Part shown: positions 9,246 to 37,210 of the stretch, piece after piece
Layout: each line of letters begins with the position of its first letter
How positions within the stretch are numbered: position 1 is the first letter of the stretch
Assembly: GCA_000165345.1 (NCBI GenBank)
Contig: CM000433.1
Coordinates: 480,001 to 544,000 of the forward strand
Length of the DNA: 64,000 nt
Direction of reading: 5' to 3'
Position numbers and translations under genes: made by a program
The notes under the pieces: model-generated
Told to the model about the DNA's origin: nothing
The model's input: only the letters and a program-made list of their open reading frames with translations
Databases searched by the model: none

Positions 9246-9670
9246 TTCCTCCTCTTTCTTAAACGAGTTATTATTAAAGGTAATAAATTATTACTTGTAT
9301 GAATATCTTTCTTTTGATCTCTATATTATATGCATGTGAATTTATTAATACTATTAAAAGAGGGAAACATTTTCGAAATTCATTCCCACATATTTAAAGT
9401 ACACAAAAGAAAAATATTACATGCATGCATACATGAATTCAATTTTTACATAAAACTACATGCAAAACTTAAGAGTGAGCATGATGAACCAATCAAATTA
9501 AAAAAAAAAAAGAAATAAGAAATTATGTAAGATTTAAATTTCTCTATATTGTGTGGAAAAATCTAAATAAAATTTTTCCTCTTCTTTGTTTTTATTGCAA
9601 TTCATTTTCATTTCATGTTTAATTTGCTTAATTGTTAAGCAGTCATGGCATTTTTAAATAGCAAATTTAG

Positions 9671-10674: not shown

Positions 10675-11658
10675 ATGAATTGTACTTTGCCCATTTTAAA
10701 GTATAGCAGAGAATTACAACAAGATCTGCTACTCAGAAATTATGACATTCTGTGGGATGTAGACTTAGGAGGGAGCGAATTTTGTAGAGTAAAACTGGGC
10801 GTTCGCAAATACAATGGTGAATTGGTTGCAATAAAGATAGTAACAAAAACGTTCTGCAGTAACTTTGAAAAGGATGTTGTGTTATATATCCAAGACAAAT
10901 TAACAAGTAATACATCTTTATCCGAACCATTAAATACGAAAAGTTACAATGAATATTTTCCAAAAATTTTTGATACATTTGAAGATATTGATTTTATTTA
11001 CATTGTAATGGAATTGAGTTTTGGTGGTGAGCTTTTTCATTTACTGGTTAGATCTGAAGATAAATTAAGCGAAGAAACTGTGTCACTAATTTTCTCTCAA
11101 ATTTGTAGTGCTTTAAAAGCTCTTCATTCAATAGGAATAATGCATGGAGATATTAAAGCAGAAAATATTACGTTTTCTAAAGAAAGCCGGCTTGATTCAA
11201 TAAAGCTATTAGACTTTGGAAATTCTTGTCTGATGTTAGCTAACGAAAAATCAAGCTTGGGAAAAAATAATGTAGAAACACCAATTTATAATCAATGTTT
11301 TGTATTTAATGATTCAAAAAGAGAAATCCAATTTAATCAAACATATTTTGACTTTTGGTCTTGTGGAAAGCTTCTATACTTGATGCTTACAGGCAAATAT
11401 CTCGAAATAGATTTTTTTGAATGTTTTGACTTTAGTGATAGTACTAAAAAAAAGCTATTTGAGTCGTCAGAATTAAAACTTTGTAGTGACCTTGCTAAAG
11501 ATTTGTTATATAAGCTTCTTTCATATAGTTTTTATCAAAGTGAATCACTTACAATGGACAAAGTTTTGTGTCACCCGTGGTTTAATTTGGCTAAGAATAC
11601 ACCAATAATTAATCATCATATATATCCACACGACGAATTAATCAAAGTAATATCTTGA
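10675..11658 (+). CDS. Ser/Thr protein kinase (CAMK-like, non-RD type)
   Basis: ATG is at 10675. Kinase subdomains are VAIKIV (catalytic Lys), HGDIKAENITF (HGD instead of HRD), DFGNS, and a degenerate glycine loop LGGSEFCRV. Confidence 0.75.
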   Translation: MNCTLPILKYSRELQQDLLLRNYDILWDVDLGGSEFCRVKLGVRKYNGELVAIKIVTKTFCSNFEKDVVLYIQDKLTSNTSLSEPLNTKSYNEYFPKIFDTFEDIDFIYIVMELSFGGELFHLLVRSEDKLSEETVSLIFSQICSALKALHSIGIMHGDIKAENITFSKESRLDSIKLLDFGNSCLMLANEKSSLGKNNVETPIYNQCFVFNDSKREIQFNQTYFDFWSCGKLLYLMLTGKYLEIDFFECFDFSDSTKKKLFESSELKLCSDLAKDLLYKLLSYSFYQSESLTMDKVLCHPWFNLAKNTPIINHHIYPHDELIKVIS

Positions 11659-11723: not shown

Positions 11724-12353
11724 TCAATGTTTAAAAGTTATTGATTTAATTGTCGAAGGGGACGAACATGTATCAGTATTATATTGAATAGACTCTGACG
11801 ATATATTATTTGAAATTGCTGTGAATAGTTCTATTTGATCTGGAGATTGAAGTTGATTATATAGACTACGACTTATATCTGCTTGAGAAGATACTGGGCT
11901 CGATAAAGGACTTATAAAATCTTTTTTTAACCTAAATGGGATTTCCAAAGTTCTTATCGGGTATTTTTCTCCTTCATTATATTTTGATTGCCTTCCTGCT
12001 TCTAAAGTATTCTTAAATTTTGTATTTACGTTTTCTGTCAAGGGAATTCTCAAATGACTTATTTCACGACTATCAAACCTCTTTATTATTGATTTTATTG
12101 CTACTGCAAGTAGTCCTAATATTGGAGCTGAAATAAGTAGTGACAATATCAATATTGTAAAAATTATTCCATTCGAGTAATTAGCAAGCTTTGTTGAATT
12201 GAATGATATTTCTAAATTCCCAATCCAGAGGACTTTTTCCTTTAATACATACAAATTGCTTGAAAGTAAATTACTCATCGAAACGTGATTATCCTTACAA
12301 GAAATTTTGTAATTGATAGAGATATTACTGTTATTTTCGTTGATAATCATCAT
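11724..12353 (-). CDS. hypothetical membrane protein fragment containing a TM helix. It may be the C-terminal part of the upstream ORF.
   Basis: The product is 209 aa with one clear TM helix, FTILILSLLISAPILGLLAVAI, then a basic stop-transfer KSIIKRF. The start MMIINEN lies only about 66 bp downstream of the stop of the 12420..13628 ORF on the same strand. Confidence 0.4.
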   Translation of the reverse strand: MMIINENNSNISINYKISCKDNHVSMSNLLSSNLYVLKEKVLWIGNLEISFNSTKLANYSNGIIFTILILSLLISAPILGLLAVAIKSIIKRFDSREISHLRIPLTENVNTKFKNTLEAGRQSKYNEGEKYPIRTLEIPFRLKKDFISPLSSPVSSQADISRSLYNQLQSPDQIELFTAISNNISSESIQYNTDTCSSPSTIKSITFKH

Positions 12354-12419
12354 GTTTATTATTGAAAATAATTTATAATTACTTGAAAATTTGTGTAAAT
12401 AATTGAATCCTTTGTTTTT

Positions 12420-13628
12420 TTATACATTTTCAATCATCTCCAAATCACGAAATTCATTGTTTTCTTTATCAAAAATCTTAATAATCAAAGATTTTCCGTC
12501 ACTTGATCTTGTATATATATTAATTGAATACTTCCCTAAGCATTTAATTATTTTATTAAATGAAATGTTCAAATAAGTAACAGAATTGCGATTAACTATC
12601 AAATTATTGCTTTTTTTATCAGTTTCAATGACAGAAACAGTATTTTTTTCAAAAAATCTTGTTCCATTTTCGTACTTTGTACATGATTCGGGGTTAATTA
12701 CCTTATTTTCCTTAGAATTTTCTTCCAAATTCTTATATTCATCCTTAATCCAAAATGTATTTGGTGGTACTATCTTAATTAGCAGATAGTATTTATCACT
12801 TTCCAATTTCCCAAAGAATCTAATTCCAAAATTAATAAATAGAGATAATCCCAACTCATTTGAAAGAAGTAAATATCTATTCAAGTGAATCATTTGATCA
12901 TTGTAAATATTGTGGGCGTTAAACAGCGTAATAAATTGCTGATCAAACTCTAAATAGTTAATAATTGGAATATTCAAGCTTGCAAGAACATTAAAGTATT
13001 TCATTTTGTCACCATACATATATTTTTCTGAATATTTATAATTACAAATGTGATCTTCACTTAATAATAAATAGTCATTATTGATGCATTGAGTAAATTC
13101 ACAAAAGTTATTAAAGTGATAAAAATTTAAGCTTGGAAGGTAATTTCCATAAATACAACTTAAATTAATACTCGAAAGTTTTTTAGGCATTATTTTTGGA
13201 GAATCTTGAAAATTTCCTAAATAAAGTTGAATTCTTGTTTCTTTTAATGCTTGCACAACCCGATTAATTTGCAATCCAGAAATTGCATCATTCACAAAAT
13301 CTCCAGATGTTCCTGCAATTGACTCCATTATTCCAAAAAAGTGGGAACTTAAATATATATTTTCTAAAGGCAATAACTTGTTTGTGTGTGTTTCATTTTT
13401 AGTCACTTGACTTGTTTTGTCCAAAAGTATATATCCATTATATTTTGAACATTCAAGAAGATCTGCTGCATCAATTGGGAATAAGGTCTTGTTACTTTTA
13501 TCATTGAATTCAATGACTTTTGTTTTATTTTCATGGTGAAATTTGGTATCATGAGCAATTCCGAACTTATTTTCTAATATAGAAAATAATAACAGAATAG
13601 CAAAATAGTACACACCCAGAAAAATCAT
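12420..13628 (-). CDS. hypothetical secreted/ectodomain protein with an N-terminal signal peptide
   Basis: The start is ATG (cat at 13626-13628). The signal peptide is MIFLGVYYFAILLLFSILENKFG. The body is Cys- and N-glycosylation-site-rich with no recognisable domain. The stop TAA is at 12420-12422. Confidence 0.5.
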   Translation of the reverse strand: MIFLGVYYFAILLLFSILENKFGIAHDTKFHHENKTKVIEFNDKSNKTLFPIDAADLLECSKYNGYILLDKTSQVTKNETHTNKLLPLENIYLSSHFFGIMESIAGTSGDFVNDAISGLQINRVVQALKETRIQLYLGNFQDSPKIMPKKLSSINLSCIYGNYLPSLNFYHFNNFCEFTQCINNDYLLLSEDHICNYKYSEKYMYGDKMKYFNVLASLNIPIINYLEFDQQFITLFNAHNIYNDQMIHLNRYLLLSNELGLSLFINFGIRFFGKLESDKYYLLIKIVPPNTFWIKDEYKNLEENSKENKVINPESCTKYENGTRFFEKNTVSVIETDKKSNNLIVNRNSVTYLNISFNKIIKCLGKYSINIYTRSSDGKSLIIKIFDKENNEFRDLEMIENV

Positions 13629-14012: not shown

Positions 14013-14411
14013 ATGAAAAAGTCAACAAATAGCAAGACCCCAAACTCAGAAGTTTCCAGTCCAAAGGTTCCAGCATCAAATAATATATTGGATGTATTTC
14101 AAGAAATGAAACAAGCCTATTTCTCAAAAGTTCCTGAAAATATCCAAATTTTGGATTCTTTTATATTATTTATGGCTTTAATTTCCATTATTCAAATTAT
14201 TTATTGCCTACTTATTCGAACAACTTATCCAATAGACTCTCTGATTGGCGGAGTGTTTTGCACTACTGGAACAGCTCTTTTAGTCTCTGCCCTCAGAATT
14301 CAATTAACTTGCCCTTCATATTTTGGTGACGTTTCTCCAAAAACTGCATTCACTGATTTTGTCATTTGCTGCATTGTATTCTTTATTGGATGCGCATCTG
14401 TATTAGTATAG
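14013..14411 (+). CDS. DAD1: oligosaccharyltransferase subunit DAD1/OST2
   Basis: ATG is at 14013. FILFMALISIIQIIYCLLIRTTYPIDSLIGGVFCTTGTALLVSALRIQ aligns with human DAD1 [44 protein letters not shown]. It has three TM helices. Confidence 0.8.
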   Translation: MKKSTNSKTPNSEVSSPKVPASNNILDVFQEMKQAYFSKVPENIQILDSFILFMALISIIQIIYCLLIRTTYPIDSLIGGVFCTTGTALLVSALRIQLTCPSYFGDVSPKTAFTDFVICCIVFFIGCASVLV

Positions 14412-34036: not shown

Positions 34037-37000
34037 ATGAATGAGCTAGATTCTTGGAACAGAAAATGGAGAACATTATGGTGTTGGACTCATATATATG
34101 TTCATTACAAAAGAGCTCAGATTTATACAAGAAATTTACCTGAGGAAGTAAAATATATATATTGGAATAGTAAGCATTCTCAGTTTGCTGAATTGATATG
34201 GAGAAATATATCAGAGTTACGAGGATGGTGGATTAAAGTGGGGCAGTTTTTGTCAACAAGAGGAGATTTACTTCCAAGAGAGTATGTGACATATTTGGGT
34301 AAATTACAAGATATAATGCCCTGTATGGAGTGGAATATTGTGGAAGGAATATTAAAGGAGGAATTAGGTAAGGATATTGAAAAAGTGTTTAAAGAGATAC
34401 AAGAAAAGCCAATTGCAGCAGCATCAATATCTCAAGTACATAAAGCAGTATTGAGTGAAGGAGAGAAAAAAGTAGTGATTAAAATACAGTATCCAAATAT
34501 TCAAGAGACTCTTAATCATGATATGAAGAATTTGGAACAATTAACATGGGCTTTTGGTCTGTTAGAAGATTATTCTGATTCTATTCATATTCTAAATGAA
34601 TGGAAAAGCTCTGCGTATTCAGAACTTGATTTTAAGAATGAGCTAAAGAATCAAAAGAGAGCATATGAGATGTTTGAGGATTCAGGGATAGAAATAATTA
34701 TTCCTAAAGTTTATACAGAATATACAACTGAAAAGATATTAACAATGGAATATATTAAAGGTTTTAATATATTAAATAAAATGCTATTAAAAGAAAATAG
34801 AGTTAATAAAAGGGAATTATTGGAAATATTATGTGATTCCTTTGCTTATCAGATTCATATTCATGGTTTTTTTCATGGTGATCCTCAGCCAAGTAATATT
34901 TTAGTGGTTTATGATGAACTAAAGAGAAAATACATTCCAGCAATTTTGGATTGGGGAATGGTTAAGATTTTTGATAAAAGTAAACAAATTGCATTTTCAA
35001 AGTAAGTTTTCTTAAAAATTGTTATTATTATTTCTTAATTTACTATTTAAAGAATGGTATATAGTATTTCAACATTAAATTTGATGGGATTTATAGAATC
35101 ATTTGAAGAAATGGGATTTAAATTCAAAAATGATCATAGAAATTCTATAGATCCTGAAATGTATATGGATGCTTTGAGAATAGTTTTTAAAGAAATTGAA
35201 ATAGATAAAATAGATCAAAGTTCAATAAGGGTAAGTTGAGAGATTATAAATGTTATGTTTCTTTATTAAAACATAAAGAAACATAAACAGGAAAGAGGTA
35301 ATTATTAATTCATTCAATAGGAGTCAGGATATGCAGCGTATAAAACAGCAACGGAACTTTCATATATGAAAAGTGGACAAATTAATGATTTAAATCTAAT
35401 GGATTACTGGCCAAATGATATAATATATTTTGTAAGGATTTTATCGTTATTACGTGGTATATGTGCTGAATTGAATGAGAGTATACCGATTTTGAAAATA
35501 TTATCCAGAAGAGCACAACAATTCTTATATTTAGAGTCAATTAATTTAGAATTAAATAAACAACAGTTATTAAAAAGAAGATTTACAAATAAATTTGAAA
35601 GGAGATTAAGCGATTACATTGAAAAAATAATGAATGAAAATAATGTATTGGGATTACAAATAGCTGTTATAAAGAATGGAAAGAATTTAGTAAATATTTC
35701 AAAAGGTATTAAGGGAGAATTAAATGGAAATCAGATTGATGAAAATACATTATTTAATGGCTTCTTTATCAATCTTGGAATTTTGGTAATTGCAATATTA
35801 ATATGTGTGGAAAAGGGTTATATATCTCTGGATGATCCAATTTGTCATTATTGGGATGGTTTTATAAGATATGGAAAGAGGAACATAACATTAAGGCATG
35901 TTCTTAATCATAGATCTGGTGTAATATCGTTTTTTCCAGAGGATATGGGTTTAAAAGAATTGTTAAATTATGAAAAGATGGTCCGAATAATTGAAGATTC
36001 TGCTCCACAGGTTCCAATAAATCAAATTACACGATATAATCCTTATTTTTTAGGTTGGATATTATCGGAATTGATAGCATTATTAACAAATCAATCAACA
36101 GCAAAGTTTATAGAGGAAAATATAATAAACCCATTTAATTTATCTGATGGTATAAAGATGTATTTACCTGAGTATAGCTTGAATAATGACCAAGTAAGTA
36201 TTTATCAATCTGAAAAGTATGATGAAACAAATATTGGGACTAATAATAATAATAATAAGTTCTTATTTCCTCTATTTTCCCCACGTTCTTCATCATCATT
36301 TTTTGCTCAAGAAGAATTTTCTTCAAGTATAATGAGATTATCAAATATTAAAAGTAAATTAGAAAATAGTAATGGTACTCAATTGATGAATGAAATAAAA
36401 GATATAATAATTCAAAAGTTAACCCCAAAAAGAATAAATAAGGAAGAAAAAGAAAAGGAAAAAGAGAAGGAAAAAAATATTAATGATTATAATGAAGAAG
36501 ATAATAATGATGAGAATGCTAATATGATTGATTTTTATGAAAGATGTGCATTGGTAAATAGAAAAATGAAGTTTTCTTCAATATCTTTTAAACAAGTACT
36601 TGAAAAACTTAAATCATCTGACTTATATAAATTAAAAAATTATGGTTATCAAGATTTTAACAAAACAAAAATCAATTTTAAATTATCAACCTTGGAGTAT
36701 TTTTTTTTAAAACCACATATATTAGATCCCTTAATATATAATTCAAAAAAATTAATAAATAAATGGATACCACCTACAAATGGAAGATATACATCTTTAT
36801 CATTAGCAAAATTATATGACCACTTAATTAGAGGAGAGATTATAGGAGATGAATTATTAAAACAAGTTATTAAAAATGAATCAATTACTTTTGATAATTC
36901 TATCGAAGGATTAATATTAACATATGGAGGTCCTAGAAAATGGTCTCTTGGGTTTCAAATTTTAGAATGTAAAAAACTTTATTATCATCAAAATAATCAA

Positions 37001-37210
37001 AAAGATGATGATCAACCTTGTTTTAAAGGAATCGGTCAATTTGATACTGGTGGTAATTTATCATTTTGTTTTCCAGAAATTGATTTATCTATTGCCATTC
37101 TAACAAATGATTATGTTAAAGGATCTTATATATCACAATCAATATTACGTTACATATTAGAAAACTTTGGATTATATCTGAACAATTACGTTCCATTACA
37201 TTTTTCTTAG
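34037..37210 (+). CDS. ABC1/ADCK (UbiB-family) atypical kinase fused to a C-terminal beta-lactamase-like domain. Three exons: 34037..35001, 35053..35230, 35321..37210.
   Basis: Three consecutive ORF-track fragments join in frame through GTAAGT donors at 35002 and 35231 and AG acceptors at 35051-52 (tttaaag|) and 35319-20 (tcaatag|). ABC1 motifs are WWIKVGQFLSTRGDLLP, AAASISQVHKAVL, VVIKIQYPNI and HGFFHGDPQPSNILV. Downstream are LGLQIAVIKNG...HVLNHRSGV, which resemble beta-lactamase/serine-hydrolase motifs. Confidence 0.8.

Follow-up and report, generated by a model that had tools for sequence, protein, structure and literature searches.

The closest described case of the gene considered here is the same locus, read in the opposite direction. 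In a study of three isolates of Cryptosporidium parvum (DID, TUM1, and CHR) for which IOWA served as the reference, Audebert et al. (2020; Sci Rep 10:7316, PMC7193590) listed CM000433:492422 A>C as a high-impact "stop_lost" variant of cgd5_2290 that was common to all three isolates, and according to the authors each of their 125 single-nucleotide variants (SNVs) was known from further CryptoDB isolates as well. We examined cgd5_2290 together with its neighbor cgd5_2280 in a gene-dense stretch of 64,000 nucleotides (nt; hereafter the window, G+C 30.7%), which is part of chromosome 5 (CM000433:480001-544000) in the 2004 Sanger reference of C. parvum Iowa II. The published SNV is the same base as window position 12422 (plus 480000), and the supplement of that study places cgd5_2290 at CM000433:492420-493628, that is, at the coordinates of the window open reading frame (ORF) plus 480000. 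Whereas Audebert et al. treated the isolates as the variants and listed the change among candidate virulence differences, the present evidence points to the reference as the odd one out; cgd5_2290 is mentioned by them in one place of the main text and in the SNV tables, where its fusion with cgd5_2280 is not pointed out. The variant is already published as "stop_lost" and no new biological mechanism is involved. What our analysis adds is that the two ORFs are one gene, divided by a stop that is a single-base difference absent elsewhere, for which an error in the 2004 consensus seems the likely source.

Three further comparisons are useful. The 634-amino-acid (aa) models annotated as "putative transmembrane domain-containing protein" are alike in locus, synteny, and architecture; these models are continuous, whereas the window has TAA at codon 403. 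Baptista et al. (2022; PMC8744675) found that 113 of 114 pseudogenes of the re-annotated 2004 assembly were repaired in the IOWA-ATCC long-read assembly, and the present locus belongs to the same class of problem, being broken in the 2004 reference and intact in newer sequence; unlike the models repaired there, however, the newer DNA is intact here while the newer annotation is still split. Lastly, a two-base deletion in ndh2, present at 30.5% in BG Iowa II (Buenconsejo et al., 2026; PMC13236581), provides a precedent for a disabling allele segregating in laboratory IOWA stock. That allele is recurrent and found in most isolates, whereas the TAA described here was found in no read set or assembly beyond the 2004 reference. 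A literature search by accession number returned no match.

Reading Frame and C. parvum Alleles

Straight translation of the minus strand from 13628 to 11724 gave 635 codons, interrupted only by a stop at codon 403, so that both ORFs lie in one frame with the TAA and 22 open codons between them. The features of the gene are as follows.

11724-13628, minus strand: whole gene, 634 codons plus stop, annotated here as cgd5_2290 plus cgd5_2280
12420-13628, minus strand: upstream ORF, cgd5_2290, 402 aa plus TAA, with a presumed signal peptide and most of the predicted ectodomain; exact match to EAK87958/XP_626166
12420-12422, minus strand: internal TAA, codon 403; the base that varies is window 12422 (coding strand T, plus strand A)
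12354-12419, minus strand: 66-nt interval of 22 sense codons (KNKGFNYLHKFSSNYKLFSIIN), frame open, part of the predicted ectodomain
11724-12353, minus strand: downstream ORF, cgd5_2280, 209 aa plus TGA (11726-11724), with the last part of the predicted ectodomain, the transmembrane helix, and the cytoplasmic tail; exact match to EAK87957/XP_626165

The downstream ORF opens with ATG ATG, the first ATG being at 12353. After the TAA the frame stays open for 231 codons, whereas for the 23 remaining window ORFs of 250 codons or more the corresponding distance is 0-38 codons; given a stop-trinucleotide frequency of 0.068, the chance of 231 open codons is ~1e-7, or (1-0.068)^231. Because the next in-frame stop lies 231 codons away, against 0-38 elsewhere, the two-ORF arrangement is well beyond chance. 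A ciliate-type code, in which TAA would be read as Gln, was considered and rejected, since long ORFs of the window terminate in each of the three stop codons (TAA 14, TAG 12, and TGA 7).

The uninterrupted C. parvum protein of 634 aa (P0011; KAL5368659.1, and WKS77883.1 of Cryptosporidium sp. 43IA8) is present on 21 contigs and is identical to the read-through translation of the window except for Glu403. For four of the 21 contigs (one being a 43IA8 chromosome and the others read assemblies) the DNA was compared, and the single mismatch was at window 12422, GAA versus TAA; the gene is 1905 nt long in the window and in the intact alleles alike, with one mismatch and no gaps. A second IOWA line, IOWA-ATCC (CP044418.1), reads "aat gta GAA aaa aac" at the site, where window 12422 corresponds to CM000433:492422 and to CP044418.1:514235. 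Three overlapping stretches of IOWA-ATCC (L006, L010, and L016), which together cover window positions 1724-63847, were compared with the window, and base 12422 was the sole difference in 62,124 nt, with no indel and no other SNV. The complete variant tables of three BGF IOWA samples called against IOWA-ATCC have no entry at 514235 (in one of them the entries on chromosome 5 jump from 496851 to 585457), and judging from this absence BGF also appears to read GAA. The 402-aa product was found on no Logan read-assembly contig. Among the sequences that could be checked, two other IOWA lines included, the stop is unique to the 2004 reference.

Elsewhere in the window, the read-assembled isolates (DRR7292xx, SRR19505511) differ from it by a few SNVs and by poly-T length differences. 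Polymorphisms among isolates fall at window positions 9511, 10332, 14601, 14913, 14954, 15896, 30718, 31052, and 39904, and these differences amount to ordinary low-level polymorphism of ~1 per 2-10 kb.

Conservation across the Genus

The joined translation of 11724-13628 (minus strand) was used as the query in a search for homologues. Outside C. parvum we found 11 homologues, each an uninterrupted protein of 620-638 aa whose alignment runs through the junction. The 11 comprise the following.

C. hominis: 634 aa, 98% identical (CUV06217.1/KAL3128129.1)
C. tyzzeri: 634 aa (TRY51579.1)
C. meleagridis: 633 aa (CmeUKMEL1_10175)
Chipmunk genotype I: 634 aa
C. ubiquitum: 635 aa (cubi_01915)
C. canis: 628 aa
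C. felis: 636 aa
Two Logan-derived homologues: 635 and 638 aa
Two further, more distant homologues from a profile search of 1.84 billion representative proteins: 638 and 620 aa

Identity to the joined translation ranges from 98 to 49% over 93-100% of the query, and the 22 codons of the gap between the ORFs are aligned. This 66-nt interval is colinear with, and kept in, the orthologues, with small indels in more distant species only. End-to-end alignment showed that every other Cryptosporidium sequence compared has the whole-gene form, 11724-13628, without an internal stop. At codon 403 C. hominis has GAA, and C. meleagridis and C. ubiquitum have GGA. Aside from full-length Cryptosporidium proteins, the profile search recovered the 209-aa fragment, which corresponds to profile positions 427-634, and it gave no match outside the Cryptosporidium family among the 1.84 billion representatives; judged by sequence similarity, the gene is restricted to Cryptosporidium.

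Synteny is also kept. The gene is flanked by the Sin3/DAD-Ost2 genes on one side and a CDPK-like kinase gene on the other in C. parvum, C. hominis, C. meleagridis, and C. ubiquitum, and in the window two of these neighbors serve as anchors.

10675-11658, plus strand: CDPK-like kinase, cgd5_2270 (Pfam Pkinase, E = 1e-31; identifier taken from the C. parvum kinome paper)
14013-14411, plus strand: DAD/Ost2 oligosaccharyltransferase subunit, cgd5_2300 (Pfam DAD, E = 7e-27; identifier from PMC9713705)

Ratios of nonsynonymous to synonymous substitution rates (dN/dS, Nei-Gojobori) were 0.10-0.21 upstream of the stop and 0.26-0.37 for the gap and downstream part; for C. parvum versus C. ubiquitum the values were 0.18 upstream and 0.36 downstream. 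Purifying selection acts on both halves of the gene.

These comparisons bear directly on the original prediction for this locus, made from the window alone, that the adjacent ORFs look like one interrupted type-I membrane protein. With 11 continuous homologues across the junction and an intact ORF in other C. parvum sequences, IOWA-ATCC included, the proposal of a single protein holds, and the comparison of orthologous loci, which had been put forward as a way to refute it, returned continuous orthologues rather than two genes. Its ORF coordinates, the shared strand, and the gap of ~66 bp proved exact, and its ORF-track reading of a common frame agrees with the one internal stop seen in the straight translation.

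Predicted Protein

The joined protein has the following predicted parts.

13572-13628, minus strand: hydrophobic leader, residues 1-19, a presumed signal peptide (Kyte-Doolittle 19-residue window, 2.18)
12294-12689, minus strand: predicted beta-rich module of the ectodomain, residues ~314-445 (AlphaFold2; confidence low to moderate)
12096-12167, minus strand: single transmembrane helix, residues 488-511, IIFTILILSLLISAPILGLLAVAI (Kyte-Doolittle up to 2.66)
11727-12095, minus strand: cytoplasmic tail, residues 512-634, ~122 aa, Ser/Thr-rich, net charge +3

Hydropathy analysis identified residues 488-511 as the sole internal hydrophobic segment, followed by KSIIKR, and eight of the nine cysteines and ten of the 11 N-x-S/T sequons of the joined protein are on its N-terminal side. 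The literature describes the protein as carrying a signal peptide. This architecture is consistent with a type-I membrane glycoprotein, and the leader and the one transmembrane segment agree with the signal peptide/transmembrane layout in the original prediction. Other details of that prediction needed correction: the tail, which it called short and basic, has ~122 residues and a net charge of only +3; "Cys-rich" overstated an upstream ORF whose 402 aa include seven cysteines and six N-x-S/T sequons; and the ectodomain, which it confined to the first ORF, runs on for ~85 residues past the stop, into the second. In full, the putative ectodomain has ~470 aa, seven invariant cysteines, and N-glycosylation sequons.

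At the C-terminal end of the tail, the motif SSPSTIKSITFK (residues 622-633; window 11727-11765, minus strand) is invariant in a 9-sequence alignment. It is kept in a distant homologue (P0015) and is recognizable in another (P0016) as SSPSTFTSISF. The motif looks like a candidate for a functional signal in the tail, for instance one for sorting or phosphorylation.

The AlphaFold2 model is of low overall quality, with a mean predicted local distance difference test score (pLDDT) of 36, and its sole moderately confident part is residues ~314-445 (pLDDT 60-75). This beta module spans the stop, with strands on either side of residue 403. If the module is real, the 402-aa product would end inside it and would lose the invariant Cys444, which would make a natural protein end at residue 402 unlikely. 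A Foldseek search with the module gave weak, generic matches to beta-sandwiches (the SID-1 ectodomain, collagenase collagen-binding domains, and a GOLD domain), none of which is used here to assign a function. A Pfam search assigned the joined protein to no family, with sub-threshold hits only (DUF4022, E = 0.05, on the transmembrane helix; Str_synth, E = 0.08), and a profile search of PDB sequences found no relative of it.

According to CryptoDB RNA-seq values in the supplement of Audebert et al. (2020; PMC7193590), expression of cgd5_2290 after 24 h of intracellular growth exceeds that in oocysts ~15-fold, and the gene is therefore transcribed.

Origin of the Stop Codon

We infer that the stop is probably a base error in the 2004 consensus and not a property of the parasite. 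In the 2004 sequence Glu403 (GAA) has become TAA through a single coding-strand G-to-T change at window 12422, and this TAA divided the 2004 gene prediction into cgd5_2290 and cgd5_2280. If the base is an error, the real product would be a full-length type-I membrane protein of 634 aa. Three points favor an error: the call is unique to the 2004 assembly even when sister IOWA lines are included, the gene is under purifying selection, and nearly all pseudogenes of the re-annotated 2004 assembly (113/114) were repaired in newer sequence. Nor does the locus have the profile of a unitary pseudogene, for it carries one lesion, has no other difference in 1905 nt, and is interrupted in no other C. parvum sequence. 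Of the mechanisms listed in the original prediction, a single-base assembly error and a nonsense allele are the ones that survive, while an indel, evolved read-through, and two real genes do not.

Several observations nevertheless weigh against an error. The support for it is indirect, by way of the uniqueness of the base call, and falls short of proof. The lack of any other discrepancy with IOWA-ATCC over 62 kb indicates that the local quality of the 2004 sequence is high, and a substitution error is uncommon in multi-fold Sanger coverage. The state of BGF is drawn from a missing entry in a variant table and not from sequence. In addition, the list of non-synonymous differences in the telomere-to-telomere paper (PMC12179316), for BGF reads against CpIOWA II, does not include a stop-lost variant of cgd5_2290, an omission possibly due to the mapping direction or to the gene models used. 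Finally, loss-of-function alleles do segregate in Cryptosporidium stocks, as the ndh2 deletion illustrates (30.5% in BG Iowa II; PMC13236581).

The main alternative is a real nonsense allele: the TAA would have been fixed, or carried at high frequency, by the parasites sequenced in 2004, and since lost from, or absent in, the ATCC/Sterling and BGF lines. Parasites with this allele would make at most a truncated 402-aa product without transmembrane helix and tail, or their message would be degraded; either way the outcome would be an effective loss of function that was tolerated during calf passage. In its favor, the 2004 sequence otherwise agrees perfectly with IOWA-ATCC over 62 kb, random mutation could easily supply a stop (5.8% of the possible single substitutions in the coding sequence, CDS, yield one), segregating loss-of-function alleles are documented in IOWA stocks, and CpIRef and CpIA are assemblies with differences at other loci, four amino acids in gp60 being an example. 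However, the allele was not seen in IOWA-ATCC, 43IA8, the three BGF samples, the second annotated C. parvum assembly, DID, TUM1, and CHR, or the Logan assemblies, and both the purifying selection on either side of the stop across the genus and the invariant tail motif in the alignment indicate that such an allele should be disfavored. We regard a nonsense allele as tenable but less likely than an error. Were it true, the loss of a membrane glycoprotein conserved across the genus would be compatible with propagation in calves, and the IOWA sublines would differ in its carriage, providing a natural knockout of a gene of unassigned function.

Read-through of a real TAA, giving a secreted 402-aa and a membrane-anchored 634-aa form of the protein, is suggested by anatomy only, namely one in-frame stop followed by 231 open codons, and is very improbable. 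While the extension is conserved, the stop occurs in no relative or other isolate, all of which have GAA or GGA, and because it is not conserved read-through is not an evolved feature. The context of the stop, TAA followed by A, is likewise unfavorable: by the general rules of eukaryotic termination TAA-A would be an efficient terminator, unlike the leaky UGA-C or UAG-CAR types.

We consider it equally improbable that the ORFs are two independently expressed genes, or a dicistronic pair, encoding a secreted cgd5_2290 protein and a small membrane protein, cgd5_2280. Such an arrangement is annotated in Iowa II, in IOWA-ATCC, and in a third assembly, the downstream ORF starts with ATG ATG, and polycistronic transcripts have been proposed in C. 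parvum in the literature. The shared models (EAK, QOY, and WRK accessions) might be taken to mean that three independent assemblies confirm the stop, a conclusion that we rejected since the IOWA-ATCC DNA reads GAA. In spite of this GAA, the IOWA-ATCC annotation is still split into QOY41662 (402 aa) and QOY41661 (209 aa), at the positions given here.

CP044418.1, stretch L005, 3001-4206 and 4276-4905: the split IOWA-ATCC models, corresponding to window 11724-13628

The CDS of QOY41662 is 1206 nt long, lacks a stop codon, and is followed by GAA. Because there is no stop between the two models in the DNA, the IOWA-ATCC split looks inherited rather than evidence-based. The same 402-aa and 209-aa proteins appear as WRK32374 and WRK32373 in the third assembly, which is probably the BGF telomere-to-telomere genome; the BGF annotation itself began as a Liftoff transfer from IOWA-ATCC. 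Two separate genes are further contradicted by the single ORF in all homologues, by the coding and conserved 66-nt interval, and by the predicted domain that spans the junction.

A short intron, or a frameshift or indel, that removes the stop is the least credible of the explanations, for nothing favors it beyond an earlier suspicion of a 1-nt offset, which was mistaken in that the frames are identical and the intact alleles are equal in length (1905 nt versus 1905 nt, one mismatch, no gaps); in the orthologues, moreover, the interval is translated colinearly.

Consequences for Annotation

The biological importance of this result is small and its useful outcome is curation. The models cgd5_2290 and cgd5_2280 should be treated as one gene of 634 aa, and the split models in IOWA-ATCC (with a CDS that lacks a stop codon) and in the third assembly need merging. 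Tagging, knockout, or antibodies directed at either "gene" in IOWA-ATCC or BGF parasites amount to work on one membrane protein. The published high-impact "stop-lost" change, a candidate virulence difference between field isolates and IOWA, probably reflects the reference and not the isolates. More generally, where neighboring models share a frame in this way, "species-specific" genes or dicistronic transcripts can be overcounted.

Models also disagree between annotations at a second place in the window, where two plus-strand ORFs encode an ABC1-kinase-like protein (34037-35005, 322 aa) and a beta-lactamase-domain protein (35366-37210, 614 aa). In 43IA8 (L011, 12077-13045 and 13406-15250) and in the gene calls of the read assemblies the two models are separate, whereas in IOWA-ATCC (L010, 12077-15243) they form one model of 1008 aa, presumably joined by an intron.

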